A stretch of 39,612 nt of DNA from positions 7,032 to 46,643 of the forward strand of contig PMCH01000363.1 in NCBI GenBank assembly GCA_003154055.1, read 5' to 3'. The notes below the pieces were generated by a model. It saw only the letters and a program-made list of their open reading frames with translations. It was not told the origin of the DNA and did no database searches. The position numbers and the translations under genes are program-made. Shown here piece by piece: positions 3,779 through 31,283 of the stretch. Each line of letters starts with the position of its first letter. Position 1 is the first letter of the stretch. Origin of the DNA: Acidobacteriaceae bacterium (GTDB lineage Bacteria; Acidobacteriota; Terriglobia; Terriglobales; Acidobacteriaceae).

Positions 3779-3795
3779 GTGGGGTTGTTCTTCCG

Positions 3796-3835
3796 GGGGT
3801 CTGTTCCTTTGCGGGAACGGACCCCTTCATTATTT
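3796..3835 (+). terminator. Probable rho-independent terminator after the TonB-receptor gene
   Basis: GGGGTCTGTTCC (3796-3807) pairs with GGAACGGACCCC (3814-3825), with one G-U position and loop TTTGCG. It is followed by the T-rich tail TTCATTATTT. Confidence 0.5.
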
Positions 3836-3846
3836 GGCGGGGCAAC

Positions 3847-4869
3847 ATGAAAAGTCGTTCGCACACATCCGTCCTGTTGGCTCCGGCCCTCCTTCTTCTC
3901 ACCATTCTCACAGTTCCTTCGCATATTTGCGCACAGGCCACAAGCGGGAGTGTACTCGGCGAGGTGCGCGTCAGTCCGGGTAACCCCATCTCCAAACCTA
4001 TCCTCGTGACCCTGCAGGGACGCGGCACCATAGTCGGACAGGCGTACACCGACGAAGAGGGACACTTCTTCTTCAACAATCTCCCCGGGAACGTCTACCA
4101 CATCGTCATCAACGAGGACGGCTATGATCCCGTGAACGAGCAGGTGGTCAGCGATCCGGAAACTTCTCCCATGCGGCTGGTGAATATTTATCTGGTCCCG
4201 CACAATGCGGAGAAGTCACGTGACACTGCCGTTGCCGGTGAGAATGCCTACCTGACCAACGAAGCCGAATACGGGAAGGTCTATCCGAAAGACGCCATAA
4301 GGGAATTCAAGGCAGGCAAAAAGGCTGATCAGAAGGGCAAAGTCGACGAAGCCATCCACCACTACGAAAAGGCCGTCTCTCTGGCGCCCACGTTCTACAT
4401 GGCGCGCAATAACTTGGGAACGCTGTATCTTGGCAAGGCCGATTACACAGCTGCCCAGGGGCAATTTGACAAGGTGATCGGCACGAACCCAAATGACGTA
4501 AGCGCGTATTTCAACCTGGCGAATCTTTATCTTTTGCAGAACCGTTACGATGACGCAGAGCGGTTCGTCGAGAAGGGACTCAGCAAACAATCCAGCTCAG
4601 CGTTCGGTAATTTCCTGCGTGGCTCACTTTATGCCCGGACTGGCAATACCCACCAAGCGGAGGCTTCCCTTCGGCGTTCGCTCGAGCTTGACCCCAAGAT
4701 GGCGCAGACCCACTTGGCGCTGGTGAACTTATTCATGCAGGAAAAGCGCAGCGCCGACGCGATTGCGGAGCTGAAGACCTTTCTGAAGGAATTTCCGGAG
4801 CACCAATTTGCTCCCAAGGCACGTGACGTTCTGAACCGCCTGGAAAACTTGGGCGCGCAACCGAATTAG
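3847..4869 (+). CDS. Secreted CarboxypepD_reg-like domain / TPR repeat protein
   Basis: ATG at 3847. Signal-like N-terminus (LLAPALLLLTILTVPSHICAQA). Ig-like/carboxypeptidase-regulatory-like segment (GEVRVSPGNPI...EEGHFFFNNLPGNVYHIVINEDGYDP). Several TPR-like repeats follow (AIHHYEKAVSLAPTFYMARNNLGTLY..., AEASLRRSLELDPKMAQTHLALVNLF). Confidence 0.7.
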   Translation: MKSRSHTSVLLAPALLLLTILTVPSHICAQATSGSVLGEVRVSPGNPISKPILVTLQGRGTIVGQAYTDEEGHFFFNNLPGNVYHIVINEDGYDPVNEQVVSDPETSPMRLVNIYLVPHNAEKSRDTAVAGENAYLTNEAEYGKVYPKDAIREFKAGKKADQKGKVDEAIHHYEKAVSLAPTFYMARNNLGTLYLGKADYTAAQGQFDKVIGTNPNDVSAYFNLANLYLLQNRYDDAERFVEKGLSKQSSSAFGNFLRGSLYARTGNTHQAEASLRRSLELDPKMAQTHLALVNLFMQEKRSADAIAELKTFLKEFPEHQFAPKARDVLNRLENLGAQPN

Positions 4870-4874
4870 CATAG

Positions 4875-6992: not shown

Positions 6993-6996
6993 GGTT

Positions 6997-8952: not shown

Positions 8953-9030
8953 CGGGGAGTTGTGATTATCTCACGGACGGCGCGGGAAAACCGCTCAACT
9001 CCTGCGAAAACATTGTGATAGGTTAATTTC

Positions 9031-10908: not shown

Positions 10909-11306
10909 CGGAGACCGCCATCGGCATGTTTTCGTCAGTTGAGACGACCTCTGCGCTCTGGAGCTCTTGGGTGGCGCAGCGCTTTTAGCGCTGCGGTAGA
11001 TGCCTCATTTATGATGTCCGGCTTTAGCCGCTGAGGGTCCGCGCTCAAAGCTAGCCCGCCTGCAGCGGATCAGTTGCTGGACAGTGCCGCCTGCCGGTAC
11101 TGTCCTAAAACTGCGTTGATAAAAAATGAGCAAAGGAAACCCGCCATCAAAGGCGGGTTCTAAGCCGTGCGATGCCAAGCCTTGATTGTCACGGCAGAGT
11201 TCACTGCTACAATTAGGACAGTACCCGCCTGCCTTATTTACCCAATTTTCATATTCCTGCTCTATGCTCATGATGTCCGTCAGCGTCCCAAATCGTTCCA
11301 CTTTCC

Positions 11307-16700: not shown

Positions 16701-17098
16701 TGACCCTGCGCCGTCCCACCTTCTTTCTGCCCCGCGCGCAGCTTCATCTTCGTGATCAGCCGGCAAAGGTTTTGATATCCAGTACGCGATGCGACTAACA
16801 GCGGCAGACGGCAAGCACCCTCGCCAAAGTGAAATTGACTTTCATTTTCAACTCGTGTTCCACGTGGAACATTTTTGGACGCAAACAAAGGACTTAGGCT
16901 CACTTCCGCCCCGATATGTGCCTTGGTCCCCGCCTTCTGAGCCGCCAGGTGAAAACGAGGCGCCCCATACACTCCATCGCGATCCAGCAGCGCCATCGCC
17001 GGTATTCCAAGGCCGGCACACACTTCGACAAGTTTCTCTGGAAGCGATGCCCCTTCGAGAAAACTGAAGGCGGAGCGGAAGTGAAGTTCGATGTACAC
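13718..17098 (-). CDS. dnaE2: Error-prone DNA polymerase III alpha-type subunit DnaE2 (ImuC)
   Basis: GTG start at 17098. N-terminal PHP motif (YIELHFRSAFSFLEGAS). Pol III alpha core motifs (PDIDLDLPS, GLLKVDLLGLGMM-like KVDLLGLGMMAV, GVPLFQEQ, PMGFYHPATLV). Last gene of an imuA-imuB-dnaE2 arrangement. Contains repeat-derived in-frame insertions (see findings). Confidence 0.9.
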   Translation of the reverse strand: MYIELHFRSAFSFLEGASLPEKLVEVCAGLGIPAMALLDRDGVYGAPRFHLAAQKAGTKAHIGAEVSLSPLFASKNVPRGTRVENESQFHFGEGACRLPLLVASRTGYQNLCRLITKMKLRAGQKEGGTAQGQDFSEHAEGLICLTGGDEGPLAAALARGGAQSALKSVQRLTEIFGRENVYIELQRHFHRDEEYRNRVAIEIAQALGLPLLATNGVNYAVPRERELADAFTALRHHRTLATTGRLLARNSERYLKSPREMRALFADLPQAIANTAELSSRLEFTLDDLGYEFPRYPVPEGETMVSFLRERTREGFQTRYGRATQELKSRARRQIERELTLIGKLGLEGYFLIVWDLVRFCREQNILAQGRGSAANSAVCYSLGITAVDPIAMELLFERFLSEERGEWPDIDLDLPSGNERERVIQYLYQRYGQRGAAMTANVITYRNRMAAREMGKAIGFDADTLKRISTAVATWEFRDEHDALDRRLRDAGLDLTHPRIRKYFELCLSAQDLPRHLGQHSGGMVICQGRLDSVVPLEPASMPGRVVVQWDKEDCADMKIIKVDLLGLGMMAVLKDSIELIRDHNKEEVDLAHLPPDDPAVYSALQKADTVGMFQVESRAQMSCLPRLRPRKFYDIVVQVAIIRPGPIVGNMVNPFLKRRQGREEVTYPHPSLETVLGRTLGVPLFQEQLLRMAMITANFTGGEAEELRRAMGFKRSEARMKTIEEKLRAGMTRNGIRGETQEQIIQSITSFALYGFPESHAASFALIAYASAYLKCHYLAAFTAALLNNQPMGFYHPATLVKDAQRHGLKVLPMDVTKSDWKCTLETAASSQWPVASESGSGKKQIQRSFTPASVSLRETEASVQDDKHKEVTNENKTEFAVRLGLNYARGVREPAGQALVRERSLAPFISIQDLARRVPELREDELTTLAEIGALNSVASGQWLVASTKQFHRRDALWQVERAVRWSGPLLDELSELDAGSPLEVMTHEERLMADFRGTGLTVGPHPMQYRRAEMKKMGIYRASDLAQVPNGRRLRIGGCVIARQRPGTAKGMMFMSLEDETGIANTIIAPDLLQKNRVLLISERFLMVEGILQNQDNVIHVRAEKVAPLRVTQAETVSHDFH
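14249..14283. repeat. Heptanucleotide tandem array (5 units, ACTNNCC) inside dnaE2
   Basis: ACTGGCC ACTAACC ACTGACC ACTAGCC ACTGAAT read directly. On the coding strand it encodes NSVASGQWLVAS. Confidence 0.9.
14508..14536. repeat. Perfect 13-bp-stem hairpin inside dnaE2 coding sequence
   Basis: GCCTCAGTTTCGC gaa GCGAAACTGAGGC. Flanked by GTCATCCTGAAC... and ...GTGAAGGATCTC, and lies in the atypically long TLE...AVRLGL segment of DnaE2. Confidence 0.9.
14582..14609. repeat. Heptanucleotide tandem array (4 units, ACTGGCY) inside dnaE2
   Basis: ACTGGCT ACTGGCC ACTGGCT ACTGGCT. Encodes SSQWPVAS on the coding strand. Confidence 0.9.
16856..16871. repeat. 16-bp perfect palindrome inside dnaE2 (PHP-domain region)
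   Basis: TGTTCCACGTGGAACA. Encodes NVPRGT within an extra segment (SPLFASKNVPRGTRVENESQFHFGEG). Confidence 0.85.
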
Positions 17099-17106
17099 AG
17101 AAAACA

Positions 17107-17186
17107 GTTTCTGGTTTCTAGTTGCTGGTTTCTATTCGCCATAGCTCTTAATTTCAGAAGACAAGAAACCAGCAACCAGAAACTAG
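17107..17186. repeat. Inverted pair of heptamer arrays (GTTNCTN units) filling the imuB-dnaE2 spacer
   Basis: Left arm GTTTCTG GTTTCTA GTTGCTG GTTTCTA (17107-17134). Right arm AGAAACCAGCAACCAGAAACTAG (17164-17186) is its reverse complement: a 13-bp perfect pairing plus 7 bp after a 7-nt bulge. The right arm overlaps the imuB stop; the left arm ends 8 nt from the dnaE2 GTG start. Confidence 0.85.
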
Positions 17187-18619
17187 TCGTACGTTCCTTC
17201 CACCAGCCACTGCACATTCAATTTGTCCTGTGCCAGCCGGTACAGCACGAGGCTGTTTTCAGAGGACACGGCGATGTCCCATTCTTCGCGCGACCAGCCT
17301 TCCTGCTCCGACCAGTCGCCGGAAGAACGCCACGGGCCCGCGCTCCACACAATCTCTCCGGCAATTTCCGGACGGTGAATGCATTTCATTCGCACCGGCC
17401 TGCCCTCACGCACACTCACCACCGCACGCAACGGCGGGCGAAACAGGCGCAATGCGATCACCGTGCTCATTCGTTCTTCCGCGTTCGCGGTCGCTTCGAG
17501 TACGTCGTCTTGTTCTTGCACGGCCACATCCTTCTTCTGTTTTCCAGGCGGCTTGGTTTCAGGCTCGACTGGCGCAAAGTGCCGCATCTCGAATGCGCCT
17601 TCGCGATGCGTGTCCAGCAGTTGCGCCGACCCGACTCTTTCCTCGCCGACGATTCCAGCAATACGTGCCAGCGTGAGTTCCAATTTTTCCGGCTCCGGAA
17701 AAATTGGCTGGAACAACCCGCTCTGCGTGGCCCGCGGCCGCGCCGGCTCCGCCGAAAGATGGACCTTCACAATCGGCGCTCCCGGCGGATGCGCCTGCAA
17801 ATCCAGTTGCAGCAGCTTGAGGAAGACCTTTGCATCCAGCATGGGCAACGGCAGACGCAACGTGCGCGTGAATGTGGAGGTCTGCGTCGGATCGCAATCT
17901 TCATGCCTCTGGGTGAGTTCCAGTTTCAAACGCAATTCCTGTGCAGCCAGCGCACGCTCTCCTAATCGCGCGCACACCTGTTCCAACATGCGGTTCAGCA
18001 GAAACGCCAGCGAGCGCAGGTTGCGGACACCCCAGCGATCAAACGTCTCCAGCCAGCGCCTCGCCTGTTCTGCATCGGAAGAAAAGCTCTCGAACAAAAC
18101 ATCCACGGTCAAATTTCCCAGACGTTGCGCTTCGTGCCCTTCGGGAATCAGAGTGACTCCGGGGAACCCGCGCGCCGCGAGCAGAGCGGCATCCGGATTC
18201 GCAGCCACGGCGACATTCGTTGCCAGCCCCATCTGTGAACAGCGCTGCGCCAGGCCGCGCGCAATTTTCGGCAGCGGGCCAAGCAGCGGTTCGAGTCCGA
18301 AAAGATTCAGAAGCACGGTGTCGGGCGCGGTGTCCTCCACCTCCGGAGAGAACGACTGCGCGCAATCGAGCAGCGCGGCGTGAGCGGACGCCTCCTGCGC
18401 CTCCGATCGTGCGCGCAGTACCAATACCTCCCACGCTTCCAGTTGCGCTTTCGTCGCTCCCATCTCGACGTCCATCTGGCGGGCGTGTTCATTCATGGCC
18501 ATCACTCTCTCCAGCGGAGGGCGGCCGGCAAGTACAGCTAACGCCCGCGTGCGAAGATCCGGCTCACAGCGGATGATCGCTTCGGCAGGAAAGTCGGGAA
18601 TGAAGACGCAGGAAAACAT
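17183..18619 (-). CDS. imuB: ImuB, Y-family-polymerase-like mutasome subunit
   Basis: N-terminus MFSCVFIPDFPAEAIIR is typical of ImuB. 478 aa. Positioned between imuA and dnaE2. Confidence 0.8.
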   Translation of the reverse strand: MFSCVFIPDFPAEAIIRCEPDLRTRALAVLAGRPPLERVMAMNEHARQMDVEMGATKAQLEAWEVLVLRARSEAQEASAHAALLDCAQSFSPEVEDTAPDTVLLNLFGLEPLLGPLPKIARGLAQRCSQMGLATNVAVAANPDAALLAARGFPGVTLIPEGHEAQRLGNLTVDVLFESFSSDAEQARRWLETFDRWGVRNLRSLAFLLNRMLEQVCARLGERALAAQELRLKLELTQRHEDCDPTQTSTFTRTLRLPLPMLDAKVFLKLLQLDLQAHPPGAPIVKVHLSAEPARPRATQSGLFQPIFPEPEKLELTLARIAGIVGEERVGSAQLLDTHREGAFEMRHFAPVEPETKPPGKQKKDVAVQEQDDVLEATANAEERMSTVIALRLFRPPLRAVVSVREGRPVRMKCIHRPEIAGEIVWSAGPWRSSGDWSEQEGWSREEWDIAVSSENSLVLYRLAQDKLNVQWLVEGTYD

Positions 18620-18626
18620 GGGGAAC

Positions 18627-18682
18627 CAGTAGTCAGTAGTCAGTCGCTGGTTGCTAGCCGCTAGGAGCTAGAAGCTAGTGGC
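18627..18682. repeat. Heptanucleotide tandem array (8 units) filling the imuA-imuB spacer
   Basis: CAGTAGT CAGTAGT CAGTCGC TGGTTGC TAGCCGC TAGGAGC TAGAAGC TAGTGGC. It occupies 56 of the 63 intergenic nt. Confidence 0.9.
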
Positions 18683-19621
18683 TTATCCTGCCCACTTGGC
18701 ATGGCTCGCAAAACTCACGACTGCCTGCGGCTGCTTGCGCTCCAGACGCGAACGCAACAACTCTGCCGTGATTTCGAATTGGTCCAGCAATTCCGCATGT
18801 CCCGGCCGGCCTGCTGAGAGCTGACAGCTGACAGCTGACAGCTTTTCCCTCGCAACCTGTGACCTGTGACCCGTGACCTTTACCAGCACCGACGAACAAC
18901 TTCCCGCAATCGGCTGTTGTTCCAGGACCAGCAGCACCGTCGGCGTATGCTCAATGGCGCGCCGAAAACGGAACCATGACGCCAAGGAAATTCGCCGCGC
19001 GCTCCGCACCGGGATGTCTCCCAGATCGAGCACGATCATTCCGAAACCATTGCTCTGCAGCAGCAGATCGGTCACTTTGAGCACCTGTTCGATCCGCGAC
19101 TCCCAACCCCGTCGCTGGTTGGCTTCTCTTTGGATCTCTACCTGAATTTTTCCCTGATGAAAATTTCGGCCACTGCATTCTCCGACTGGACTGAGAACCG
19201 GGGACCGAGAACTGAGAACTGTTTTCTTGCACCGCACCCAAAGCAAACGCTCCATGGCGATCTGCGCCGCCATCGCCGACCCAGGATCCAGCGCGTCGCT
19301 CGCATCCACCAGCGCGCACACTTCTCCGCGTTGCGTGGCCTGGGCAAGCGCGGAGAGCAGAATGCTGGTCCTTCCCGACGATGCCGCCCCACAAATTTCC
19401 GTCAGACAGCCGCGAGGCAAACCGCCGGTGAGCGCGTCCAGTTCGCGAATGCCACACGAAACCATCTCCGGCGCGGGACGAACATCCAGGCGCGAAGCGG
19501 GAGCAACCGCCGCCAGTTTCGGCAGCGCGCTCAACTGCGCCAGCAACGCTGCACTGGAGCGGAGAGGAAAAATAAAAGGGCGGCCAACGGCCGCCGATGA
19601 GAACACCGGAGAAGCAGACAT
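18683..19621 (-). CDS. imuA: ImuA, RecA/SulA-like mutasome subunit
   Basis: GIRELDALTGGLPRGCLTEICGAASSGRTSILLSALAQAT (degenerate RecA-like P-loop region) and LLWVRC. SD GAGGAAG upstream of the ATG at 19621. First gene of the cassette. Confidence 0.75.
   Translation of the reverse strand: MSASPVFSSAAVGRPFIFPLRSSAALLAQLSALPKLAAVAPASRLDVRPAPEMVSCGIRELDALTGGLPRGCLTEICGAASSGRTSILLSALAQATQRGEVCALVDASDALDPGSAMAAQIAMERLLWVRCKKTVLSSRSPVLSPVGECSGRNFHQGKIQVEIQREANQRRGWESRIEQVLKVTDLLLQSNGFGMIVLDLGDIPVRSARRISLASWFRFRRAIEHTPTVLLVLEQQPIAGSCSSVLVKVTGHRSQVAREKLSAVSCQLSAGRPGHAELLDQFEITAELLRSRLERKQPQAVVSFASHAKWAG
18813..18879. repeat. Two adjacent heptamer arrays inside the 3' part of imuA
   Basis: GCTGAGA GCTGACA GCTGACA GCTGACA (18813-18840) and CCTGTGA CCTGTGA CCCGTGA CCT (18856-18879). 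They encode ...VKVTGHRSQVAREKLSAVSCQLSAG... Confidence 0.9.
19191..19221. repeat. Heptamer array inside imuA
   Basis: CTGAGAA CCGGGGA CCGAGAA CTGAGAA CTG. Encodes part of KKTVLSSRSPVLSPV. Confidence 0.85.
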
Positions 19622-21426: not shown

Positions 21427-22128
21427 TCAAACATGCTGGTTCGTGGGCTGAGCGGACACGACCGGCACTGTCAGGAAAAACTCTTTTACCAGTCTGTTTC
21501 GTAGTTCTGTCGAAACCCGGCTCAAAAGGCCTGTGAGCGGGGGACCTCCATCCTGTGCCAAGGCAGCTGACTGCGAACACGTCTCGCGAAGCAGCACAAT
21601 GCTGTTTCGCATCCAGGGTGCCACCATCGCTCCTTGCATAAGGTTCTTCTGGTCAGTAGCGTAGCAATGTGACTTGATCACCGCGATCCAACCTTCACAA
21701 AACGGGTCAGTTGTAACCAGCTCCGGATTTTCCAGTGCTGCTCGGTTCACCGCAGTCAGGGCACCCTCGACGGGCGAAGGCAAGTCCACCGAAATACCGG
21801 CGACGGTAATGGTCATCAGCTTCTGCCCCTGTCGGACCCAACGATACAGTCCAACGACGTCGATGTGCTCGATCTTGCCAAACAGGTTGACAGCAAATCT
21901 GTCCACCCCAACCCGGATCAGTTGCCATCCCTCGTCTACTGCCCAGGTGTGGCAGGGATGGAAGCAATACCCTGTGGGGACATCCGTTCCGAACTTGGTC
22001 TCGATGCGAGGTCGAAGCCGAGGCAGAGTCTCTACCGGACCTGCTGTGGAGGGCTGCGCCCGGCGCTTGAGCAGGCGGCCGAGTGTCATCACTAGCGCAA
22101 ACATCAGTAATACAAGCAGCACTGACAT
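21427..22128 (-). CDS. Membrane-anchored glycine-cleavage-H-like (GcvH fold) protein lacking the lipoyl-lysine
   Basis: N-terminal TM helix (MSVLLVLLMFALVMTLGRLL). GcvH-like core (HTWAVDEGWQLIRVGVDRFAVNLFGKIEHIDV...SPVEGALTAVNRAALENPELVTTDPFCEGWIAVIK). By my alignment to E. coli GcvH, the ESVKA lipoylation position reads TVAGI. SD GGGGAGGG upstream of the ATG at 22128. Confidence 0.65.
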   Translation of the reverse strand: MSVLLVLLMFALVMTLGRLLKRRAQPSTAGPVETLPRLRPRIETKFGTDVPTGYCFHPCHTWAVDEGWQLIRVGVDRFAVNLFGKIEHIDVVGLYRWVRQGQKLMTITVAGISVDLPSPVEGALTAVNRAALENPELVTTDPFCEGWIAVIKSHCYATDQKNLMQGAMVAPWMRNSIVLLRETCSQSAALAQDGGPPLTGLLSRVSTELRNRLVKEFFLTVPVVSAQPTNQHV

Positions 22129-22223
22129 ATACCCTCCCCGTGATCGTGCGATCTGGAGGCGTTCCGGGTTCGCCGGGCCTTGCGTCGTCCCGGAGCGTTC
22201 ACTCCTCGAGGCTTGTACCCCTC

Positions 22224-23330
22224 CTAGGGTCCAAGAAACAGCGGCAACCGCTTCGCCATCAAGCTAAATGCGGCAACACCCAAGGCAACGATGCTGTATG
22301 CAACGAGGAACTCGTTCCAGTCGGGCAGGTATTTCGAGTTCATAGCGGCTTCCACGGAAGTGATGCACGTGTTCAGCCGGTTGGTGATGAGTCCAGCCAG
22401 AACCATCCCGGAGCAGAGGTAAACCATTCTCGGACTCTGCAGGTTCCTCTCGTTGATCAGGATAACTATGGGTAACAGGATCAGGCCCATTTCAAGTCCC
22501 AGAAGCATGTTTTCAGGATTGTTTTTCCAGACCAACAGCGGAATGCCGCGATAGACCAAGTCGGCGATGCGCACGCCCAGATAGAGAAACAACAGAGCTG
22601 CCAGCACTTTGCCCAGGCCTGCTACCCTCTCAGGCGACAACCCCTTATCCGAGGCGACGTTCATGTGCCAGGAAGCGAAGATGATGACCGCCAGGCCCGC
22701 ACAAACCGCAGAGACAAAGAAGAGAAACGGTAACTGTGGAGTCGACCAGAGCGGAGAAACCCTTTCGGGCACAGATTGCAGGAGATCGGCCAGACTGGTT
22801 TGGTACAGCACTGAGAAAACTACTGCCACAAACAATAAAGGCATGTTCAAGAAACGCACCCAGTGCGGCGGCGTGCGGCCACCGAAACGCTTCCACAGAT
22901 CAGGAGCAAATTCCAGGATCAGGACTGCACCAAAAAGAATGAAAGCCCATGCGATTCCACAGAGAATCGAGTTCGATTTCCGCGCGCCCATCTGCAACGC
23001 TATTCGTCCCGGCGACGAAACTAGCCCCAGAACAGCCACGAGGTAGCCCAAGAAACTCAATACCAGACTGGCTCGGACGATAGGCCGGTAGCCTTCGAGA
23101 TTTAACACATAAATGGTGGCTGCTATCGTGAAACCTCCCGCTGCAATTGCGATCCCGCAAAGCACATTCAGACCGGTGATCAGGCCCCAGGGGAACACAT
23201 TGCCAAGGGAGCCGGAGTGATCTATTCCGTGCACGAGACGTACGTAGGAGGCGCAAATCCCCCCTGTCATTAGAAGCGCGAAGCACCAGACCCAGAAACT
23301 CCATCGAGGAAAGTGAAGTGTTCGTTTCAT
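22224..23330 (-). CDS. HybB-like (NrfD/PsrC family) integral membrane subunit
   Basis: The ATG at 23330 (MKRTLHFPRW...) is preceded by GGAGGAGGG. Blocks collinear with E. coli HybB as remembered: FPWGL..., GYRPIVRASLVLSFLGY, LEFAP, SPLWSTPQLPFLF, YLPDWNEFLVAYSIVA...RLPLF. About 10 TM helices. Confidence 0.8.
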   Translation of the reverse strand: MKRTLHFPRWSFWVWCFALLMTGGICASYVRLVHGIDHSGSLGNVFPWGLITGLNVLCGIAIAAGGFTIAATIYVLNLEGYRPIVRASLVLSFLGYLVAVLGLVSSPGRIALQMGARKSNSILCGIAWAFILFGAVLILEFAPDLWKRFGGRTPPHWVRFLNMPLLFVAVVFSVLYQTSLADLLQSVPERVSPLWSTPQLPFLFFVSAVCAGLAVIIFASWHMNVASDKGLSPERVAGLGKVLAALLFLYLGVRIADLVYRGIPLLVWKNNPENMLLGLEMGLILLPIVILINERNLQSPRMVYLCSGMVLAGLITNRLNTCITSVEAAMNSKYLPDWNEFLVAYSIVALGVAAFSLMAKRLPLFLGP

Positions 23331-23403
23331 AAACCCTCCTCCGGGCTGCCGGGCAGCAATTACGCACTGAGAGGCAACCGCCCTTCGAGAATTCCAAAGT
23401 TGT

Positions 23404-23964
23404 TTATGCCGCGATCTCTTTCTTGTTTGGCGCGATGTCGCCAACGCCCGCACTCATCCTGTCGCGTACCATCTTGATCAGGACCGGTATCGCGGCCACA
23501 ACTGCGGGGTGCATGTTTTCACCAACGGTGGAACAATCCCTCGCCTCCACCGCCAAGATGAGCACCTGTTCCGCTGCCGGGAGGCGAAGATGCCTCGCCA
23601 CGGCAAGAGCCTCGAACAGTCCGACGTAGTGTGGGGAGCTTCCCGGAAGTGAATTCAGATCGGTGTCACGAAATTCGTAGATTGTTCCCGGCGGAGCGGA
23701 GCCCGTCACCACGGTATCTACTACGATGAGACGAGTTGCGTTGAGTGCGTAGTCGAGCAGGTGAAGGCCTGTCTCTGGAGTGCTAACGACTTCCACGTTT
23801 GCCGGCGCAAATTGCCGGACGTGCGCCGCAACCATGCTGCCCAGCGAATCATCGCCCAGCAAATCGTTTCCCAGGCACAGGACTCGGATGTCGCATTTCT
23901 GCGCAGCAGATCCCGACGGATCCACCTCGGAACTCGAGGTACTACTCACGATGCACACTCCCAT
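23404..23964 (-). CDS. [NiFe] hydrogenase maturation endopeptidase (HyaD/HybD/FrhD family)
   Basis: IRVLCLGNDLLGDDSLG...LIVVDTV...SSPHYVGLFEAL are typical motifs. The start is uncertain: ATG at 23964 or GTG at 23949, both overlapping the large-subunit 3' end. Confidence 0.8.
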   Translation of the reverse strand: MGVCIVSSTSSSEVDPSGSAAQKCDIRVLCLGNDLLGDDSLGSMVAAHVRQFAPANVEVVSTPETGLHLLDYALNATRLIVVDTVVTGSAPPGTIYEFRDTDLNSLPGSSPHYVGLFEALAVARHLRLPAAEQVLILAVEARDCSTVGENMHPAVVAAIPVLIKMVRDRMSAGVGDIAPNKKEIAA

Positions 23965-25501
23965 CGAAGTCGCGACGCAATAAAGCCAGCGTCTTTCCGC
24001 TTTGGTTACGTACTCGAACCAGTAGCGGCATGCTCCCCGGGAGCGAGTGGGTGGCGCACCCGTGACACGGGTCATAAGCTCGGAACGCCATCTCCACTCG
24101 GTTGAGGACACTCTCAGGAACGTCCGCGCCGGAGATCAGTCCTTTGGCAGCTTTTTCCACGCTCATCGCCATGCGGGCAGAGTTGTTTTGTGTGGCAACG
24201 ATCAAGTTGGCCTTTTGGATCAGTCCATTTTCGTCCGTCTGGTAGTGGTGGACGAGTGTTCCGCGCGGCGCTTCCACCACCCCGATCCCTTCCCGGGGCT
24301 TCTCTGTCGGCAGAACGCGTATAGCCGGGTCTGTCAGTTGCGGGTCAACAGCCAGTTCCTTCATGCGTTCCGTGGCGTAGAGCAATTCCACCAAACGCGC
24401 CCAGTGGTTTGCGAGCGTGTAATGCACCGGCTTGCCTCCCAGAGTCGAGAAGAACTTCTGATAGGCCTCGTGGGCGAGCGGCGTGGTCATACCGTCGCTG
24501 ACATTTAGGCGCGCCAAAGGTGCCACGCTGTAAATGCCGCTGTCGATGCCCTCCCGGAAGCCATTCCACCCGACTTGCTTGAGGTAACAGAACTTCACAT
24601 AACTCCAGGGCTCGACGTGTTCCGCGATGTGTTCCAGGTATTGCTCGGGTGGGAACCTCTTCCATTCCTTTCCGTCGGGCGTGACGACGCGGATCGGACC
24701 GTCGTAGAAATTGACCCGATTACAGTCGTCCACCATGCCCATGTAGTAGGTACGGTGCGTATAAACATCGGCGAGGATCAGGCTCACATAATCCGTGTTC
24801 TTGAGAACTACATCTTCGAACAGCTGGAGCGTGAACTTCGCAAATTCGACGCCCTCCGCGGCTACCTCCTGAAATTGTCTCTGCATGTCGGGAGTCACGC
24901 GCTTCGCCACGCCACCGGGCAAGCCGAAGACCGGATGTACAGCTTTCCCGGCAACGAGTGCGATCAGTTCGCGCCAGCGCCGACGCATCGCGATCACTTT
25001 TTTGCCGGTTTCGACTCCAACTTTTCCGATCACGCCGAGCACGTTTCGTTCGGTAGGAGGCGCGTCCGGGCCCACGACGAAGTCCGGCCCACCCAGAAAG
25101 TAAAAGTGAAGAGCATGATCCTCGGCCATGAAGGTGTTGTAGACGAGTTCCCGGATTTTCTTTGCAGCCGGCGGCGGATCCACGCGATACAGGCTGTCGA
25201 GAGCCTTGGTCGCCGCCATGTGGTGCGCGGTGGGACAGACGCCGCAAATACGCGAAGTGATCTGCGGCATCTCCTCAGCGGGACGGCCTTGCACGAACTT
25301 TTCGAAACCGCGCAGCTCGGGCACCTGGAAATAGGCTCGTTCGACCTGTCCGGCTTCGTCCAGGAAAATGTCAATCTTGCCGTGTCCCTCCAGACGAGTG
25401 ATCGGATCAATCGTGATGCGCCGGCGCGTATAGCCGGCGTTGGCTTTTGCAGCACCTTCTTGCCACGTATGGTGCAGGATTTGTTCCTTCTCTTCGGGCA
25501 T
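23942..25501 (-). CDS. mvhA: [NiFe] hydrogenase large subunit (group 3c / MvhA-like by context)
   Basis: N-terminal Ni-binding motif RICGVCPTAHH. C-terminal DPCHGCATH followed by a 34-aa extension that would be removed by the adjacent endopeptidase. The ATG at 25501 is preceded by GAGGTG (the tracked start at 25507 is a GTG). Confidence 0.9.
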   Translation of the reverse strand: MPEEKEQILHHTWQEGAAKANAGYTRRRITIDPITRLEGHGKIDIFLDEAGQVERAYFQVPELRGFEKFVQGRPAEEMPQITSRICGVCPTAHHMAATKALDSLYRVDPPPAAKKIRELVYNTFMAEDHALHFYFLGGPDFVVGPDAPPTERNVLGVIGKVGVETGKKVIAMRRRWRELIALVAGKAVHPVFGLPGGVAKRVTPDMQRQFQEVAAEGVEFAKFTLQLFEDVVLKNTDYVSLILADVYTHRTYYMGMVDDCNRVNFYDGPIRVVTPDGKEWKRFPPEQYLEHIAEHVEPWSYVKFCYLKQVGWNGFREGIDSGIYSVAPLARLNVSDGMTTPLAHEAYQKFFSTLGGKPVHYTLANHWARLVELLYATERMKELAVDPQLTDPAIRVLPTEKPREGIGVVEAPRGTLVHHYQTDENGLIQKANLIVATQNNSARMAMSVEKAAKGLISGADVPESVLNRVEMAFRAYDPCHGCATHSLPGSMPLLVRVRNQSGKTLALLRRDFDGSVHRE

Positions 25502-25508
25502 AGCCACC

Positions 25509-26498
25509 TCACATGGAAGCTTGCACCTCGTTCGATCTTTTTCGCCGTAAGAACGATCCTGGCAAGCCGTAGCGATAGAAGGTTCCCACCGGATCCGGAA
25601 TCGTATTCAGGACCCGATCAATTTCAGCATCTTCCTTGCTCTCCACCAGGGACGCGAGGCAGGAAAGGATTTTTGCACCCTGGTCGCGGACGCGGCTGGT
25701 GGGACCGCAGCAACCCGTACACGGCATATTGCCCCGGATGCACGCGGCCTCGCAGCCAGAGCGCGTCGCTGGACCCATGCAAACCAACCCTTGGGCCAGC
25801 AGGCAAGTCTGCTCATCGATGATCAGATCCTGGGTCCGTTTAAATTCTGCGATGGATAACGTTTCTGGCTTCGTGTCCTTGCGTGGGCATTCGTCACACA
25901 ACGCACAATCGGGAGCAAACACCGTGCCCTTGGCTGGGAGATCGCCGCCCAGTAGAGTCTGCAGTGCGGTGCGGAGTATCCGTGGCGGCGGCGGACAGCC
26001 GGGGACGTAGTAATCAACGTCCACGATCTGGTCGAGCGTCCTCACAGTGTTATGAAATCCAGGCAGCACCACGGTGTGCCCGTCATCGTGGTGAGACGTC
26101 ACCGGAAGAACACTCTCGGGATTCACCGTGCTGGGTGATTCGAGATAAACCGTCCGCAAGATGCTTTCCCGGTCGAACAGATTGGCCAGACCGGGAATTC
26201 CGCCCAAGTGCGAACACGATCCGAACGCCACCAGCAATTCGGACTTGCTTCTCAACAGCCGTGCCATCTCCTCTTGTTCTGTCGTCCGAACGGCGCCGTT
26301 CAAGAAGGTTGCCGTGATCGAGCCATCCGGCATCGCCTCGACATCCTTTCGTTTGAAGTCGAGAGCTACGGGCCAGAAGACAATCTCCACGGCAGCAATG
26401 ACGTCCAGAAGGCCTTCGGCTAGATCGACGACGGTCTCGTCGCAGCCGCCGCAAGACGAGCACCAGTAGAAGGCGATTCTTGGCTTCGTCGCTAGCAC
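25509..26498 (-). CDS. mvhG: [NiFe] hydrogenase small subunit, no Tat signal (MvhG-like)
   Basis: AFYWCSSCGGCDE proximal-cluster motif right at the N-terminus, with no twin-arginine leader. GSCSHLGGIP. C-terminal Cys clusters (CALCDEC, CMGPATRSGCEAACIRGNMPCTGCCGP). GTG start at 26498 preceded by GAGGAGG. Confidence 0.85.
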   Translation of the reverse strand: MLATKPRIAFYWCSSCGGCDETVVDLAEGLLDVIAAVEIVFWPVALDFKRKDVEAMPDGSITATFLNGAVRTTEQEEMARLLRSKSELLVAFGSCSHLGGIPGLANLFDRESILRTVYLESPSTVNPESVLPVTSHHDDGHTVVLPGFHNTVRTLDQIVDVDYYVPGCPPPPRILRTALQTLLGGDLPAKGTVFAPDCALCDECPRKDTKPETLSIAEFKRTQDLIIDEQTCLLAQGLVCMGPATRSGCEAACIRGNMPCTGCCGPTSRVRDQGAKILSCLASLVESKEDAEIDRVLNTIPDPVGTFYRYGLPGSFLRRKRSNEVQASM

Positions 26499-26974
26499 AC
26501 AGCCACCTCCTCGCGGATGTCCTCCGTCTCCGCGTCCAGCTGAAGGGGACCAAGCGCGCGGACTTTCTCGACCATGTCGTTGATGACGCTCCGCACCCGG
26601 TCACCCTCGGCCGCGGAAATCCATTCCAGGCGGAAACGCTCTTCCTCGATTCCCATCTGCCGCAGTACGCACTTGAGCAGGTGATAGCGCCGAAGAGTCT
26701 TGTAATTGCCTTCCTGGTAGTGGCAGTCGCCGGGATGGCAGCCGCCAATCAGCACGCCATCTGCTCCTTGCGCAAAGGCATCCAGCACAAACTGCGGATC
26801 CACCCGACCGGAGCACATCAGGCGGATCACACGCACATTGGGGGCGTACTTCATGCGCGAAGTACCGGCCAGGTCCGCGGCAAGATACGTACACCAGTTG
26901 CAGAAGAACGCCACGATTCGAGGCTCAAATGCTGCTTGCAACAACGGGGCGCGACTGAGTTGGCGATTACGCAT
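26492..26974 (-). CDS. mvhD: MvhD-like hydrogenase delta subunit ([2Fe-2S] linker to HdrA)
   Basis: IVAFFCNWCTYLAADLAG...VIRLMCSGRVDPQFVLDAFAQGADGVLIGGCHPGDCHYQEGN is the MvhD/FlpD signature. The ATG at 26974 overlaps the hdrA stop by 8 nt; the tracked ORF start at 27226 lies inside hdrA. Confidence 0.85.
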   Translation of the reverse strand: MRNRQLSRAPLLQAAFEPRIVAFFCNWCTYLAADLAGTSRMKYAPNVRVIRLMCSGRVDPQFVLDAFAQGADGVLIGGCHPGDCHYQEGNYKTLRRYHLLKCVLRQMGIEEERFRLEWISAAEGDRVRSVINDMVEKVRALGPLQLDAETEDIREEVAVC

Positions 26975-28985
26975 AGGCCAGGACTCCTTCGATCTCCTCG
27001 AAAATCTCCTCATCCTCAAAGAAATTCTGCTGGATTGAGCCCGACGGGCACCCGGCCACGCAGGTTCCGCAGCCCTTGCACAGCACCTCGTTGATCGTGG
27101 CTTTCTTCTTCTCCTCCGCAAACGAGATCGCCTGGTAGGGACAGAGCGGAATGCAGCTCCTGCAACCGGAGCACGCATCTTCGGAGATGAACGCCGTGTA
27201 GGGTTCCAGTTCCACGAACTGCGCATCGATCAGCGCCATCGCCTCCGCTGCCGCCGCCCCCGCCTGAGCCACTGTGTCGGGAATGTCCTTGGGGCCCTGA
27301 CACGCTCCGGAGATGAACACCCCCTCGGTAAACGTACTGACCGGCGCGAGTTTCGGATGCCGCTCCAGGAACCACCCCTCACTCGAGCAACTGATGTTGA
27401 ACATCCGGCGAACTGCCTGCGCATCGGGCTGCGGCTCCATTCCAACCGAAAGCACGACCATGTCCACCGGAATACGGCGTACGAACGCCGCCAAGGTGTC
27501 TTCCGCGCGGATCACCAGCCTGCCTTTCTCAGAGGGATGGGCCGCCCAGTCCGTGACTTCCGCCACGCGCCCGCGCACGAAATGCACGCCTTCATCGAGC
27601 AGCCGGTCGTAGAACTCTTCGTACCCTTTCCCCGGCGTCCGCATATCAATGTAGAAGTTGTAGACTTCGGCGCCGGTCCGCTCCTTAACAAGGTGCGCCA
27701 GTTTGAGCGAGTACATACAGCACACCTTCGAGCACCAGCGGTTCGTGTTAGCGTCGCGGGACCCGACGCAGTGGATAATTCCGACCGCTTTGGGCCGCTT
27801 GCCGTCGCGCAGGACTAGCTCTCCGGCGGTCGGCCCAGCGGCATTGATCAGGCGCTCCACTTCCAGCGATGTGTACACGTTCGGATAGCGCCCGTAACCG
27901 TAATAAGGATTGCGGACGGGATCGAAAGTCTTGAACCCGGTAGCCAGGATGATGGTTCCAACCTCGATGTCCTCCAGCGTCTCCTTTTGGGTGAAGTCAA
28001 TGGCCTGGCGGTCCCCACATGCTTCCACGCAAGTTTTCTTACACTTCTTTGACTTGAATTCGATGCAGGTTTCGGGATCAATCACGACTTTCTGCGGCAC
28101 GGCCTGAGGGAACGGCAAGTAAACCGGCTTCCTCTTGCTCAAGCCCAGGTTGAATTCGTCGGGAGTCTTGCCTTCCTTGTAGACGCAAGCGGTGACGCAC
28201 TCCTGGCATCCGAGGCAGAGGTCTTCATGTATGTAGCGCGGTTTGCGCTTCACTTTGACCCGGTAGTTGCCCACATAGCCAGCGACTTTGACCACTTCGG
28301 AGTAGGTCCAAAGAGTGATGCCGGGATGTGATCCCACGGCGGTCATCTTCGGTGTAAGAATGCAGGCCGCGCAATCTAGCGTGGGAAAGGTCTTGTCGAA
28401 CATGGCCATGTGTCCGCCGATGGTGGGTTCGCGTTCGACAAGGTAGACGCGCTTGCCGGCCTCTGCGAGCGTCAGTGCAGCGTGAATTCCGGCGATTCCA
28501 CCACCCACGACTAACACGTTGGTATTGATAGGAACACGCCTCTTCTGCAATGGTTTGTGCAGGGAAACACGCCGCACTGCCGCCCGAACCAGGTCATTCG
28601 CCTTAGCCGTTGCTGCTTGCTTGTCCAGATGAACCCACGAAACATGTTCGCGAATGTTCACCATCTGGAGCAAAAACGGATTCAAACCGGCGCGGTCTAT
28701 GGTCCGGCGAAACGTGGGTTCGTGCAGTAGGGGTGAGCAGGAAGCAACGACGATGCGATTCAGACTGTGCTCCCGCACATCTTGCTGGATGAGTGCCTGC
28801 CCCGGGTCGGAGCACATGTACTTGTAATCCCGCGAGACAACTACGCCCGGCAACTCGGCCGCATATTCCGAGACCGCTCTAACATCCACCGTCCCGGCGA
28901 TGTTCGTTCCGCAATGACAGACGTATACTCCAACGCGCGCGCCGCCGGCGTTCGATCCGTTTGTCGGAGTGCGGGTCTCAGGCAT
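26967..28985 (-). CDS. hdrA: Heterodisulfide reductase subunit A-like flavoprotein (HdrA)
   Basis: N-terminal VYVCHCGTNIAG cluster motif. FAD fold VLVVGGGIAGIHAALTLAEAGKRVYLVE. Inserted and C-terminal ferredoxin motifs (CLGCQECVTAC, CSGCRSCIPLCP, CKGCGTCVAGCP). The ATG at 28985 is preceded by GAAGGAGA and lies 4 nt after the hdrB stop (tracked start 29006). Confidence 0.9.
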   Translation of the reverse strand: MPETRTPTNGSNAGGARVGVYVCHCGTNIAGTVDVRAVSEYAAELPGVVVSRDYKYMCSDPGQALIQQDVREHSLNRIVVASCSPLLHEPTFRRTIDRAGLNPFLLQMVNIREHVSWVHLDKQAATAKANDLVRAAVRRVSLHKPLQKRRVPINTNVLVVGGGIAGIHAALTLAEAGKRVYLVEREPTIGGHMAMFDKTFPTLDCAACILTPKMTAVGSHPGITLWTYSEVVKVAGYVGNYRVKVKRKPRYIHEDLCLGCQECVTACVYKEGKTPDEFNLGLSKRKPVYLPFPQAVPQKVVIDPETCIEFKSKKCKKTCVEACGDRQAIDFTQKETLEDIEVGTIILATGFKTFDPVRNPYYGYGRYPNVYTSLEVERLINAAGPTAGELVLRDGKRPKAVGIIHCVGSRDANTNRWCSKVCCMYSLKLAHLVKERTGAEVYNFYIDMRTPGKGYEEFYDRLLDEGVHFVRGRVAEVTDWAAHPSEKGRLVIRAEDTLAAFVRRIPVDMVVLSVGMEPQPDAQAVRRMFNISCSSEGWFLERHPKLAPVSTFTEGVFISGACQGPKDIPDTVAQAGAAAAEAMALIDAQFVELEPYTAFISEDACSGCRSCIPLCPYQAISFAEEKKKATINEVLCKGCGTCVAGCPSGSIQQNFFEDEEIFEEIEGVLAYA

Positions 28986-29853
28986 ACGCGATCTCCTTCG
29001 CTTCAAGCACCGGTTCGACTGGGACCAGACTCCGCTGTAGCCCGATCGTCGCCGCGGATGCGCCCAGCGCTAGCGCCATCAGTTGCGTGAAGTAGAGGAC
29101 CGGAATCGACAAGGGATGGCGAATGCTCCCAGCCTCCTTCTGAAAGCACTCCAGGTTGAACTGGCAAAGTGGACAAACGGTCGCGATGACATCCGCGCCG
29201 TTCATTTGCGCCTCCGCGATCAAGTAGCGGATGAGATGCAGCCCGATCTCGGGCAGCGTGCCCTTCTGGCTTCCCCCACAACAGCGGGTCTTAAGAGGGT
29301 AGGGGGCAACGGTCGCTCCGCAGGCCGCCAGGAGCTGGTCCATGGAGGTTGGGTTACGCTGGTCGTCGAACGTGGCGTAGGGCCTGACAATCTGACAACC
29401 ATAGTAGGGTGCGACCTTCAACCCCTTGAGAGGTCTCACTACCTTGGCAGCAATGGCTTCTAGCCCGATGTCGTTCAGGAAGACATCCAGCGGGTGGCGC
29501 ACCCGGACGCGATCGTGGTACTCAAGGCCGATCGCGCCCAGCGCTCGACTGACCACGGTTTTGATATCGGGATAGTCTCGGATGTAGCGCTGGGTCTTGT
29601 TGAGAACCAGGTAACAGGCAGCACAGGGAGCGATGATATCCATGCGCTCGCGTTCCGCCAGAGCCAGGTTCCGCGCTGCCAGTGCATAGGACGTCAGCTC
29701 ATCGACAGACAGATAGGTAGTGGCGCCACAGCAGTTCCAGTCGTCTAGTTCCTGAACCTCGATCGCCAAGGACCGGAACACCGCGAGCAATGACTCTTCG
29801 TAGGCCCGTCCCGTTCCCCGAAGCGAGCAACCGGGATAGTAGGCGTATTTCAT
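28978..29853 (-). CDS. hdrB: Heterodisulfide reductase subunit B-like (two CCG domains)
   Basis: MKYAYYPGCSL..., WNCCGAT and TRCCGGS CCG motifs, and CPLCQFNLE. The ATG at 29853 is preceded by GGAAGGAG and forms an ATGA overlap with the hdrC stop. Confidence 0.85.
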   Translation of the reverse strand: MKYAYYPGCSLRGTGRAYEESLLAVFRSLAIEVQELDDWNCCGATTYLSVDELTSYALAARNLALAERERMDIIAPCAACYLVLNKTQRYIRDYPDIKTVVSRALGAIGLEYHDRVRVRHPLDVFLNDIGLEAIAAKVVRPLKGLKVAPYYGCQIVRPYATFDDQRNPTSMDQLLAACGATVAPYPLKTRCCGGSQKGTLPEIGLHLIRYLIAEAQMNGADVIATVCPLCQFNLECFQKEAGSIRHPLSIPVLYFTQLMALALGASAATIGLQRSLVPVEPVLEAKEIAYA

Positions 29854-30440
29854 AACGCCAACTCCTTCCTGGTCTCCGCAACCGAATCCAGCAACGCTAC
29901 GATCTCGTCCTGGCGCTGAATCTTCTCTTTCTTCGCGGGCATCCTTCCGGCTAGGAACAGCTTCCAGCCCAAACCGCTCATGCTGAGTAGTCGCCAGATG
30001 GCGGTACGCAGGAACACCCGTACGATCAGCCAGCTTTCCGTAATTCGTCCCGAGCCCCGGACCATGCGACAAAACTGCTGCGCCATGACTGGGATGGGAA
30101 AACGTTTGGGATAGAAGCGCTCCTCGATCGCTCGCTCTTTCAACGCATACATCAGGTGGGTGATATTGATCTTTTTCGGGCACTCGACCATGCACGCGTA
30201 GCAGGCGGTGCACAGCCAGATCGAAGAGCTACTGAGGACTTCCTCTTTGAAGCCCTCGCGCGAAAGATGCATCAATCGGCGGGGAGTGTAGTCCATGTAC
30301 AAAGAGAGTGGGCAACTGGCGCTGCACAACCCGCATTGCAGGCAATGACGGATCCTCTCGCCGCCGACCGTATGGCTGATCCAACGGGCGAATTCAGGGT
30401 CACGGTCAGCCTCGAACTTCACAGTGCGTTTCAGTTCCAT
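29850..30440 (-). CDS. hdrC: Heterodisulfide reductase subunit C-like (2x[4Fe-4S])
   Basis: CLQCGLCSASCP and CTACYACMVECP motifs. ATG at 30440 preceded by GAGGTG. C-terminal amphipathic/hydrophobic extension. Confidence 0.8.
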   Translation of the reverse strand: MELKRTVKFEADRDPEFARWISHTVGGERIRHCLQCGLCSASCPLSLYMDYTPRRLMHLSREGFKEEVLSSSSIWLCTACYACMVECPKKINITHLMYALKERAIEERFYPKRFPIPVMAQQFCRMVRGSGRITESWLIVRVFLRTAIWRLLSMSGLGWKLFLAGRMPAKKEKIQRQDEIVALLDSVAETRKELAL

Positions 30441-30527: not shown

Positions 30528-30974
30528 TCAGGCGACCGCGGGAGTGGTCAACGAAACCATCTTGGCCCTGCAAACGAGATCTAGTTTCAAGGCGGCTGCA
30601 ATTGGGCACTCACGGCGCGCAGATTCCACGGCCTCCTGAAATCGACTGGACTGAGATTCCGTCGTGCGGACGGTGATTTCCAAGTGAGAGTTCGTGATCC
30701 GCCACTTCTCGTTGGCGTTGTCCAACGTCAGGACGGCATAGGTATCCACAACCGCCGGTTTTATGCCGACCTTGGCCATTTCGATGGCTACGGTTGTCGC
30801 CATACAGGAAGCAATTGCGGCGGCAAGCATTTCACAAGGAGAAGTGAGCCGCTCAAATCCGGCCAGTGATCCAAAGGCATAAGTCGCATTGTTTAGAACG
30901 CCACTGGGCGTAGAAACCGCCCCCTCTCCGGCATAAGGTCCACCCCTCCAGATTGCATGTGCTTCACGAAACAT
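30528..30974 (-). CDS. OsmC/Ohr-family peroxiredoxin-like protein
   Basis: SPCEMLAAAIASCMATTVAIEM...ECPIAAAL pattern with the two conserved Cys regions. ATG at 30974. 87 nt upstream of hdrC on the same strand. Confidence 0.7.
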   Translation of the reverse strand: MFREAHAIWRGGPYAGEGAVSTPSGVLNNATYAFGSLAGFERLTSPCEMLAAAIASCMATTVAIEMAKVGIKPAVVDTYAVLTLDNANEKWRITNSHLEITVRTTESQSSRFQEAVESARRECPIAAALKLDLVCRAKMVSLTTPAVA

Positions 30975-31283
30975 TGCGGACCTCCCAGACCTGCAGGTGA
31001 AGTCGTGCCGTTGTCTCACTTAAGCCCCGTGTTGCGAGTCGGGCACATTCAGCTCTGGTCGGCTTTGGCACCCGAAACAGCACCCACTCACAGGCTGTGC
31101 ACAACCGCTGCAAGTATCCCGTTTGCCCCGGAACCTGTCGCTTATCTATGGGTTACCTCTGGATTACCAAAGGATTCCGTGGCTCGGGCTGAACCGCCCG
31201 TAAAATGTGATACTTGGCGGTACCACGAATTTCGTCACTTCGATTCTCCAACGGTGGTAGAGTTCGGCTGTGCGGGGGCGTCC

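Follow-up and report, generated by a model that had tools for sequence, protein, structure and literature searches.

Within a 39,612-nucleotide (nt) stretch of DNA from an Acidobacteriaceae bacterium (assembly GCA_003154055.1, contig PMCH01000363.1, positions 7,032 to 46,643 of the forward strand; hereafter the window), which is a chromosomal segment of 57–60% GC, nine open reading frames (ORFs) run in one direction on the minus strand between positions 21427 and 30440 and encode an Mvh-Hdr type hydrogenase-heterodisulfide reductase followed by two predicted membrane proteins. A sequence-only reading of this DNA had described nine coupled genes, and all of the ORFs, coordinates, overlaps and gaps were found as it gave them; its gene identities also hold, with Pfam and NCBIfam models, which we used to assign protein families, agreeing for all nine proteins. 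The first gene, hdrC (29850–30440), encodes a 196 amino acid (aa) protein with two [4Fe-4S] motifs (Pfam Fer4_8; NCBIfam CoB_CoM_SS_C, 77 bits), and is followed by hdrB (28978–29853; 291 aa; two Pfam CCG domains) and hdrA (26967–28985), which specifies a 672 aa flavoprotein binding flavin adenine dinucleotide and iron-sulfur (FeS) clusters (NCBIfam HdrA2, 850 bits; Pfam Pyr_redox_2 and Fer4). Next are mvhD (26492–26974; 160 aa; Pfam FlpD, 186 bits; VhuD, 135 bits), an mvhG-like gene for a [NiFe] hydrogenase small subunit (25509–26498; Oxidored_q6; VhuG, 198 bits), an mvhA-like gene for a group 3 [NiFe] large subunit (23942–25501; 519 aa), and a gene for a HycI/HybD-type maturation endopeptidase (23404–23964; Pfam HycI; TIGR00072, 95 bits, above cut-off). 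The six canonical Mvh-Hdr subunits and the maturation protease are therefore all present, contiguous and apparently intact. The last two genes encode a 368 aa polytopic membrane protein of the NrfD/HybB family (22224–23330; Pfam NrfD, 27.9 bits with a cut-off of 25.8) and a 233 aa, single-pass membrane-anchored protein of the GcvH fold (21427–22128; Pfam GCV_H, 56.8 bits), and these are the only two of the nine proteins with predicted transmembrane (TM) helices.

The genes of the soluble core are tightly packed. An ATGA is common to hdrC and hdrB, hdrB and hdrA overlap by 8 nt with the hdrA ATG at 28985 (hdrA homologues are likewise called at 672 aa), hdrA and mvhD also overlap by 8 nt, and mvhD and mvhG overlap by 7 nt with a GTG start for mvhG at 26498. 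Gaps of 73 and 95 nt precede nrfD and the gcvH-like gene, respectively, each ending in a strong GGAGG Shine-Dalgarno sequence. Alignment of these gaps across relatives showed conservation only at the Shine-Dalgarno sequence and the ATG, scanning both for promoter and terminator consensus sequences gave nothing above shuffled expectation, and RNA folding of both gave z-scores near 0; we read these scans as uninformative on a separate promoter or terminator, rather than as proof of co-transcription. Using tblastn with acidobacterial Hyp and HybA-like queries, and Pfam analysis of the other large ORFs, we found neither hyp maturation genes nor a HybA-like gene in the window, in agreement with the earlier reading on both counts.

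Comparison with the Protein Data Bank (PDB) placed the large subunit closest to 7T2R_D (E-value 4.5e-122), the large subunit of the bifurcating NiFe-HydABCSL enzyme, followed by the Vhu-type 9SFI_g (3e-113) and the Mvh subunit 5ODC_F (2e-108), whereas the matches to periplasmic group-1 enzymes were partial in length and no better than 1e-41. Likewise, the best NCBIfam model was VhuA (416 bits) and homologues of the protein are labelled 'F420-non-reducing hydrogenase large subunit' by their source records. The sequence also has a C-terminal extension beyond the DPCHGCATH motif. These matches assign the large subunit to group 3 (Mvh/Vhu-like; subgroup 3c or 3d) and not to the HybB-partnered group 1. 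A group-1 enzyme was thus rejected, as the group-3 matches are better by ~70 orders of magnitude (1e-108 to 1e-122 against 1e-41 or weaker), and the large subunit thus lies outside the groups that normally use HybB. The N-terminus of the small subunit, VLATKPRIAFYWCSSCGGC, runs straight into a CxxC motif with no twin-arginine (RR) motif; since it begins directly at the first Cys motif, the protein has no twin-arginine translocation (Tat) signal, again as had been proposed.

The Hdr subunits also resemble proteins of both soluble and membrane-linked systems. HdrB aligned end to end with 5ODC_B (1e-41), with the cysteines of both CCG motifs matching, and its score on the HdrB model (180 bits) is only slightly above that on the model of the quinone-linked MfrE/SdhE anchor (168 bits). 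Residues 11–108 of HdrC, which form the two-cluster domain, align with HdrC of 8RVV and 5ODC, and this FeS domain also matches QmoC (67 bits), while the last 80 residues diverge from methanogen HdrC and resemble the C-terminus of type-E SdhB/MfrB.

The membrane protein encoded next to this core is a divergent member of its family. It scored 185 bits on the HybB model, for which the equivalog cut-off is 450, and 161 bits on HmcC, and it shares 25% identity with Escherichia coli HybB. Ten TM helices were predicted, with both termini inside as judged from the Lys/Arg distribution. A Foldseek search with the AlphaFold2 (AF2) model retrieved ActC and ActF of alternative complex III (template modelling score 0.65–0.72; probability 1.0), while a sequence search of the PDB gave no match at E <= 1, such that the structural placement comes by fold search alone. 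Predicted fold and sequence together fit the NrfD/PsrC family, which has 8–10 TM helices in two four-helix bundles. A gene for a PsrB/HybA-type FeS partner is absent from the window and from every Hdr-linked locus that we examined.

For the GcvH-like protein the AF2 model (predicted local distance difference test score, pLDDT, 85) comprises a TM helix at residues 4–24, a barrel at 42–160, and helices at 166–183 and 207–218. The top 22 Foldseek matches were all H-proteins (e.g. 1ONL and 3AB9), with target-normalised template modelling scores of 0.90–0.92 and a root-mean-square deviation of 1.6 Å. However, all 19 relatives have Gly, Ala or Asp in the column of the lipoylation site (K65 within the ESVKA motif of E. 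coli), and the window protein has TVAGISVD at the lipoylation hairpin; because the lipoyl lysine is absent, the protein cannot carry lipoate. A Lys/Arg-rich stretch follows the TM helix, and by the positive-inside rule the GcvH-like domain is therefore predicted to lie in the cytoplasm with its TM helix in the membrane.

We gathered related loci by exact-protein look-ups, by a one-genome-per-species scan using a GcvH-like alignment, and by a metagenome scan using an alignment of the NrfD clade, and all collected loci (numbered with the prefix L) were annotated by tblastn. One check of the earlier proposal is whether an nrfD homologue occurs with hdr/mvh genes in other genomes, and this was borne out in 28 of 29 informative loci, where nrfD adjoins hdr/mvh genes, with hycI directly followed by nrfD in 27 loci including the window. 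Across these loci the NrfD protein is 51 to 100% identical to that of the window, and the flanks vary, with MarR or OsmC genes upstream, and MTTB, epimerase, permease, ProC-like plus hypCDEABF genes, or insertion sequence elements downstream. The mvhDGA-hycI block of L112 is inverted and runs divergently, and nrfD there still lies directly after hdrA, while in L119, a short contig, a more divergent nrfD is followed by hdrC. Such conserved linkage is hard to reconcile with chance adjacency, and the gene arrangements show that nrfD is tied to hdr and not to the genes of the hydrogenase. The divergent, heme-less membrane protein is thus a conserved genomic partner of the Hdr subunits.

This arrangement bears directly on an alternative in which nrfD and the gcvH-like gene form an independent two-gene unit, a degenerate module copy standing beside hdr/mvh with no functional tie, which we consider highly improbable: the 73- and 95-nt gaps, the existence of a free-standing paralogous module (see below) and L111, where KatG, LysR and phosphoribosyltransferase (PRTase) genes precede the pair and the 8.8 kb upstream contain neither hdr nor mvh genes, would all suit it, but the adjacency persists in 28 of 29 loci despite altered flanks, the L112 inversion and loss of the gcvH-like gene, and the L111 contig ends 170 nt past the gcvH-like gene, so that hdr could lie downstream as in L119.

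The most divergent of the Hdr-linked loci, L088 and L112, both lack the gcvH-like gene, and identity to the window proteins falls to 46–51% for HdrC and HdrB but is still 68–83% for HdrA, MvhD and MvhA. The HdrCB pair in these loci may have been exchanged, or may be co-evolving with the membrane module.

The gcvH-like gene is less constant than nrfD. It follows nrfD in 28 of 35 informative loci and is missing from the other seven (L088, L102/L103/L120, L112, L123 and L115), which retain hdrCBA and nrfD. In L115 a 34-residue remnant of the GcvH-like C-terminus (568–669) lies directly after an nrfD that is 90% identical, which suggests recent decay of the gene. A TM-anchored GcvH-like protein had been put forward as part of the operon, and while its fold and TM helix stand, its constant membership does not; as it is absent from seven loci that keep hdrCBA and nrfD, the GcvH-like protein is best read as an accessory, dispensable companion of NrfD. 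Within the Hdr-linked clade Cys59 (in the motif HPCHTW) is invariant and Cys184 nearly so, whereas in the HybA-linked clade described below Gly stands in for Cys59, and Leu, Ala or Val for Cys184; neither clade shows any variation at His57 or His60. We also observed an orphan GcvH-like gene (L086, 10001–10696), with Cys59 and without Cys184, which has no nrfD or hdr neighbours. It is flanked by genes for cation efflux and for a giant Ser/Thr kinase, and this gives the family a third genomic setting.

The pairing of NrfD with a GcvH-like protein is not special to this operon, as the pair derives from a widespread Terriglobia module containing a HybA-like protein. Some 77 of 78 other Terriglobia genome loci (L008–L085; e.g. 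L003, 10001–12615) have a gcvH-like gene, then a HybA/HmcB-like FeS gene, then nrfD, and the same three-gene module is present in Bryobacterales. The FeS protein of the module is 250 aa long and has four clusters (HmcB, 246 bits) and a TM helix at its C-terminus; its sequence starts directly with the first cluster motif and lacks a Tat signal. The module NrfD scores 246 bits on HmcC and 231 bits on HybB and shares 32% identity with the NrfD of the window. In ~55 loci the module is followed by convergent genes for a sigma-54 response regulator and a histidine kinase, and no catalytic subunit gene was found near it in the Terriglobia and Bryobacterales loci. Because both forms occur within one metagenome-assembled genome (MAG), as in L007 with L017 and L006 with L047, the Hdr-linked and FeS-linked forms are paralogues, and the Hdr-linked form looks like the module with its genes in the opposite order and HdrCBA-Mvh substituted for the FeS protein. 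The recurrence of the paralogous module in ~77 of 78 loci indicates that this NrfD subfamily normally works with a GcvH-like protein, and the FeS protein that partners it probably stays unexported. In this lineage, NrfD and the GcvH-like protein are thus an established pair.

A second comparison comes from clusters without nrfD. MvhA proteins 77–83% identical to that of the window are encoded in L122 (Acidobacteriota, 529–11077) and L124 (Armatimonadota, 301–11140), where the gene order is hdrC/B (or a fused HdrD-like protein), etfB, etfA, a gene for a 653–660 aa protein, hdrA, mvhDGA and hycI. The 653–660 aa protein has an HdrD-like C-terminal part (Fer4 and CCG) and an N-terminal part of about five hydrophobic, His-containing helices which no family model matched and which we read, on sequence alone, as NarI/HdrE-like. 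One soluble core therefore seems to carry alternative predicted membrane modules, and since the sister clusters carry a different one, they support the idea that the bacterial Mvh-HdrA family is generally wired to the membrane.

In methanogens the high-potential electron of this type of complex goes to the heterodisulfide of coenzyme M (CoM) and coenzyme B (CoB), CoM-S-S-CoB. To our knowledge bacteria lack both coenzymes, and we know of no Acidobacteriota that make either. The high-potential acceptor of the bacterial HdrABC-MvhADG is consequently a long-standing question, bacteria having no CoM-S-S-CoB, and a conserved membrane subunit of a quinone-interacting family offers a concrete candidate, the menaquinone pool. 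Menaquinone (~-74 mV) lies near CoM-S-S-CoB (~-140 mV) in potential, the CCG-domain proteins GlpC and SdhE pass electrons to quinones, and Hdr-type or bifurcating systems that are linked to quinones have precedents in QmoABC, HdrDE and EtfABCX. We therefore favour a membrane-docked Mvh-Hdr in which HdrCB delivers high-potential electrons to menaquinone through NrfD, to which we assign a probability of roughly 0.45. Cytoplasmic H2 would be oxidised by MvhAG and the electrons passed via MvhD to the flavin of HdrA, which would bifurcate them, with the low-potential electron going to ferredoxin (Fd) and the high-potential electron passing through HdrC and HdrB to the menaquinone (MK) pool at or through NrfD. 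Overall, this would amount to 2 H2 + Fd(ox) + MK -> Fd(red) + MKH2 + 2 H+, where MKH2 is menaquinol, and reversal would be possible. At the cytoplasmic face of the membrane NrfD would serve as the dock for its partner, with the GcvH-like protein serving as an optional adaptor or stabiliser of the NrfD junction.

The genomic association behind this proposal is robust, and we infer every functional step beyond gene content. The sequence-only reading had suggested a membrane- and quinone-coupled Mvh-Hdr variant, and the membrane part of that claim has gained a conserved nrfD partner; the quinone part is only inferred, and several observations weigh against it. The AF2 model of NrfD is of moderate quality only (pLDDT 66). 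When the window NrfD is compared with the six-position quinone-site list of E. coli HybB, only S129 is identical, and four of the six proposed positions are changed in the NrfD clade (D58N, D109S, E133G and S190D), as is the proposed proton path (H184Y, H200S and E155K), while the FeS-linked paralogous NrfD retains most of those residues. Because the proposed quinone-site and proton-path residues are replaced, NrfD of this clade could have lost its quinone chemistry. Solved structures of NrfD-family complexes place both the FeS partner and the quinone site at the periplasmic face, and docking on the cytoplasmic side of NrfD needs a new interface. Furthermore, an HdrB that keeps both CCG cluster motifs fits some disulfide substrate, and the relatives that carry the operon are all uncultured, being MAGs or metagenome contigs.

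Some of these observations also suit an alternative in which NrfD, with or without the GcvH-like protein, is a mere membrane tether or an ion-translocating stator and Mvh-Hdr reduces a soluble disulfide with no quinone chemistry, such that NrfD would position the complex near respiratory enzymes or couple the exergonic branch to proton movement. Replacement of the proposed HybB quinone-site and His/Ser channel residues would be expected here, alongside retention of R86, Y96, E140, R254, D257, E280 and R318 in the NrfD clade, as would the two intact CCG motifs of HdrB and the many clade members that score under the Pfam NrfD threshold. Nonetheless, characterised NrfD-family subunits are all quinone-interacting, and in the sister clusters the corresponding position is taken by another predicted membrane module, one that includes an HdrD-like domain. 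The residue list itself derives from homology models of HybB and not from experiment (PMC8076601). On balance we hold a tether or stator to be unlikely.

The cysteines of the GcvH-like protein open two further possibilities. One keeps menaquinone as the acceptor: H2-driven bifurcation by Mvh-HdrABC would reach it via heme-less NrfD, docked to its partner on the cytoplasmic side, while the Cys59/Cys184 pair of the GcvH-like protein would act between HdrB and the membrane, either as a redox relay or as a protein-disulfide substrate. With Cys59/Cys184 standing next to the invariant His57 and His60, such a system would be a new class of energy-converting hydrogenase, a version that we regard as doubtful. 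The other likens the operon to DsrC/DsrMKJOP, with the GcvH-like Cys59/Cys184 as the protein substrate of HdrB in a thiol-disulfide relay and NrfD linking to the quinone pool; the two cysteines would be a redox-active pair, or a metal site with His57 and His60. Cys59 and Cys184 are conserved in the Hdr-linked clade and replaced in the HybA-linked clade, HdrB is the disulfide-reducing catalytic subunit, and GcvH-like proteins serve Hdr-like complexes in sulfur oxidisers. However, the gcvH-like gene is absent from seven of 35 loci that retain hdrCBA and nrfD, the protein has no lipoyl lysine, and the cysteine pattern is confounded by phylogeny, all of which leave the relay distinctly improbable.

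The favoured arrangement could also run backwards, with menaquinol and reduced ferredoxin confurcated to H2, through which a fermenting cell in anoxic, acidic peat would get rid of reductant. Enzymes of flavin-based bifurcation can work in both directions, and relatives come from peat, bog, fen and wetland metagenomes, the closest to the window being Terriglobia (Acidobacteriota) MAGs from peat, bog and wetland soils, but the mean potential of MKH2 and Fd(red) is well above that of H+/H2 unless H2 pressure is very low, and we consider this direction very unlikely.

Set against known systems, the membrane-docked Mvh-Hdr that we favour combines features that are elsewhere found apart. As in the MvhADG-HdrABC complex of hydrogenotrophic methanogens (PDB 5ODC, group 3c), all six subunit families are present, mvhD lies beside hdrA, the small subunit has no Tat signal, HdrB is full-length with both CCG motifs, and the large subunit matches 5ODC_F closely. 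Unlike the methanogen complex, it belongs to a bacterial host without CoM and CoB, is encoded in a single operon ordered hdrCBA-mvhDGA, and, as judged from the genes alone, has conserved NrfD-family and GcvH-fold membrane proteins attached to what is there a soluble assembly. E. coli hydrogenase-2, HybOABC, has in HybB a homologue of the membrane protein (185 bits, under the cut-off of 450; 25% identity; 10 TM helices; R89, Y99, E148, R265, E291 and R329 conserved) but also has a HybA gene, a Tat signal and a group-1 large subunit that are lacking here, where the hydrogenase is predicted to be cytoplasmic and several proposed quinone-site residues are changed. QmoABC and HdrDE likewise wire HdrA-type flavoproteins, or HdrB/HdrC-type CCG and FeS modules, to the membrane pool of quinone or methanophenazine, but with a di-heme cytochrome b (HdrE/NarI-like), for which no gene was found in the window, whereas the membrane subunit here is of the heme-less NrfD family.

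In sulfate reducers, DsrMKJOP and HmcABCDEF join an NrfD-like subunit (DsrP and HmcC, respectively) to a cytoplasmic HdrD-like CCG subunit, which in DsrMKJOP-type complexes acts on DsrC, a small protein with redox-active cysteines. By contrast, the window has no cytochrome c, cytochrome b, periplasmic FeS subunit, DsrC or dsr genes, and its CCG subunit is part of a complete HdrABC-Mvh set. The sHdr-LbpA systems of sulfur oxidisers also encode a GcvH-fold protein with hdrCBA, but the protein here has no lipoyl lysine, carries a TM anchor and a 65-residue C-terminal extension, and has a hydrogenase attached to its system. The sHdr gene arrangement is hdrC1B1A-hyp-hdrC2B2 with lipoate-maturation genes; we found no hdrC2B2, lplA (lipoate ligase) or radical-SAM genes in the window, and a lipoate system of the sHdr-LbpA type was rejected on the missing lipoyl lysine and the single hdrCB pair. 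Finally, EtfABCX and FixABCX resemble the proposed split of a low-potential donor between ferredoxin and the quinone pool, although the proteins are unrelated (Etf versus HdrA flavin) and the donor is NADH there and H2 here.

A full-text literature search, with many subscription papers outside its coverage, gave no description of Mvh/Hdr with NrfD/HybB or of a GcvH-like protein with NrfD, and literature on group 3c enzymes of Acidobacteria likewise gave no relevant description of the architecture. A review of the NrfD family includes no Hdr-, Mvh- or GcvH-associated member (PMC8076601). The view that this architecture had not been described before thus survives, and what appears to be new is a canonical Mvh-Hdr with a conserved NrfD-family membrane subunit, Mvh-Hdr itself being known. 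As far as sampled, the architecture is restricted to a narrow group of uncultured Terriglobia. The conserved NrfD beside Mvh-Hdr suggests an undescribed link of a bifurcating enzyme to the membrane quinone pool, and if this is true, H2 would join the donors that are bifurcated between ferredoxin and quinone, an NrfD-type subunit could serve a cytoplasmic partner other than SoeAB, and a first role could be assigned to the non-lipoylated, membrane-anchored proteins of GcvH fold that are widespread in Terriglobia. It would also bear on H2 cycling by the abundant Acidobacteriota of peat and wetland.

Directly upstream of the operon, 87 nt before hdrC and on the same strand, lies a gene for an OsmC-family peroxiredoxin (30528–31019, minus strand; TIGR03562 OsmC, 97 bits, above cut-off). 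The hdr genes of L102/L103, L122 and L123 likewise have an OsmC gene immediately before them, while a MarR gene takes this place in other loci. It is possible that the OsmC gene is the first gene of the transcription unit, and this neighbour may connect the operon with stress by thiols or peroxide.

Elsewhere in the window, a minus-strand trio at 13718–19621 comprises imuA-like (RecA fold), imuB-like (IMS/Y-family) and dnaE2-like (polymerase III alpha) genes, which make up the classic SOS-inducible mutagenesis cassette. Two adjacent minus-strand genes (4875–8952) encode sulfatase domains fused to long C-terminal arrays of tetratricopeptide repeats, and these adjoin a gene for a TonB-dependent-receptor-like outer-membrane barrel (5–3778).

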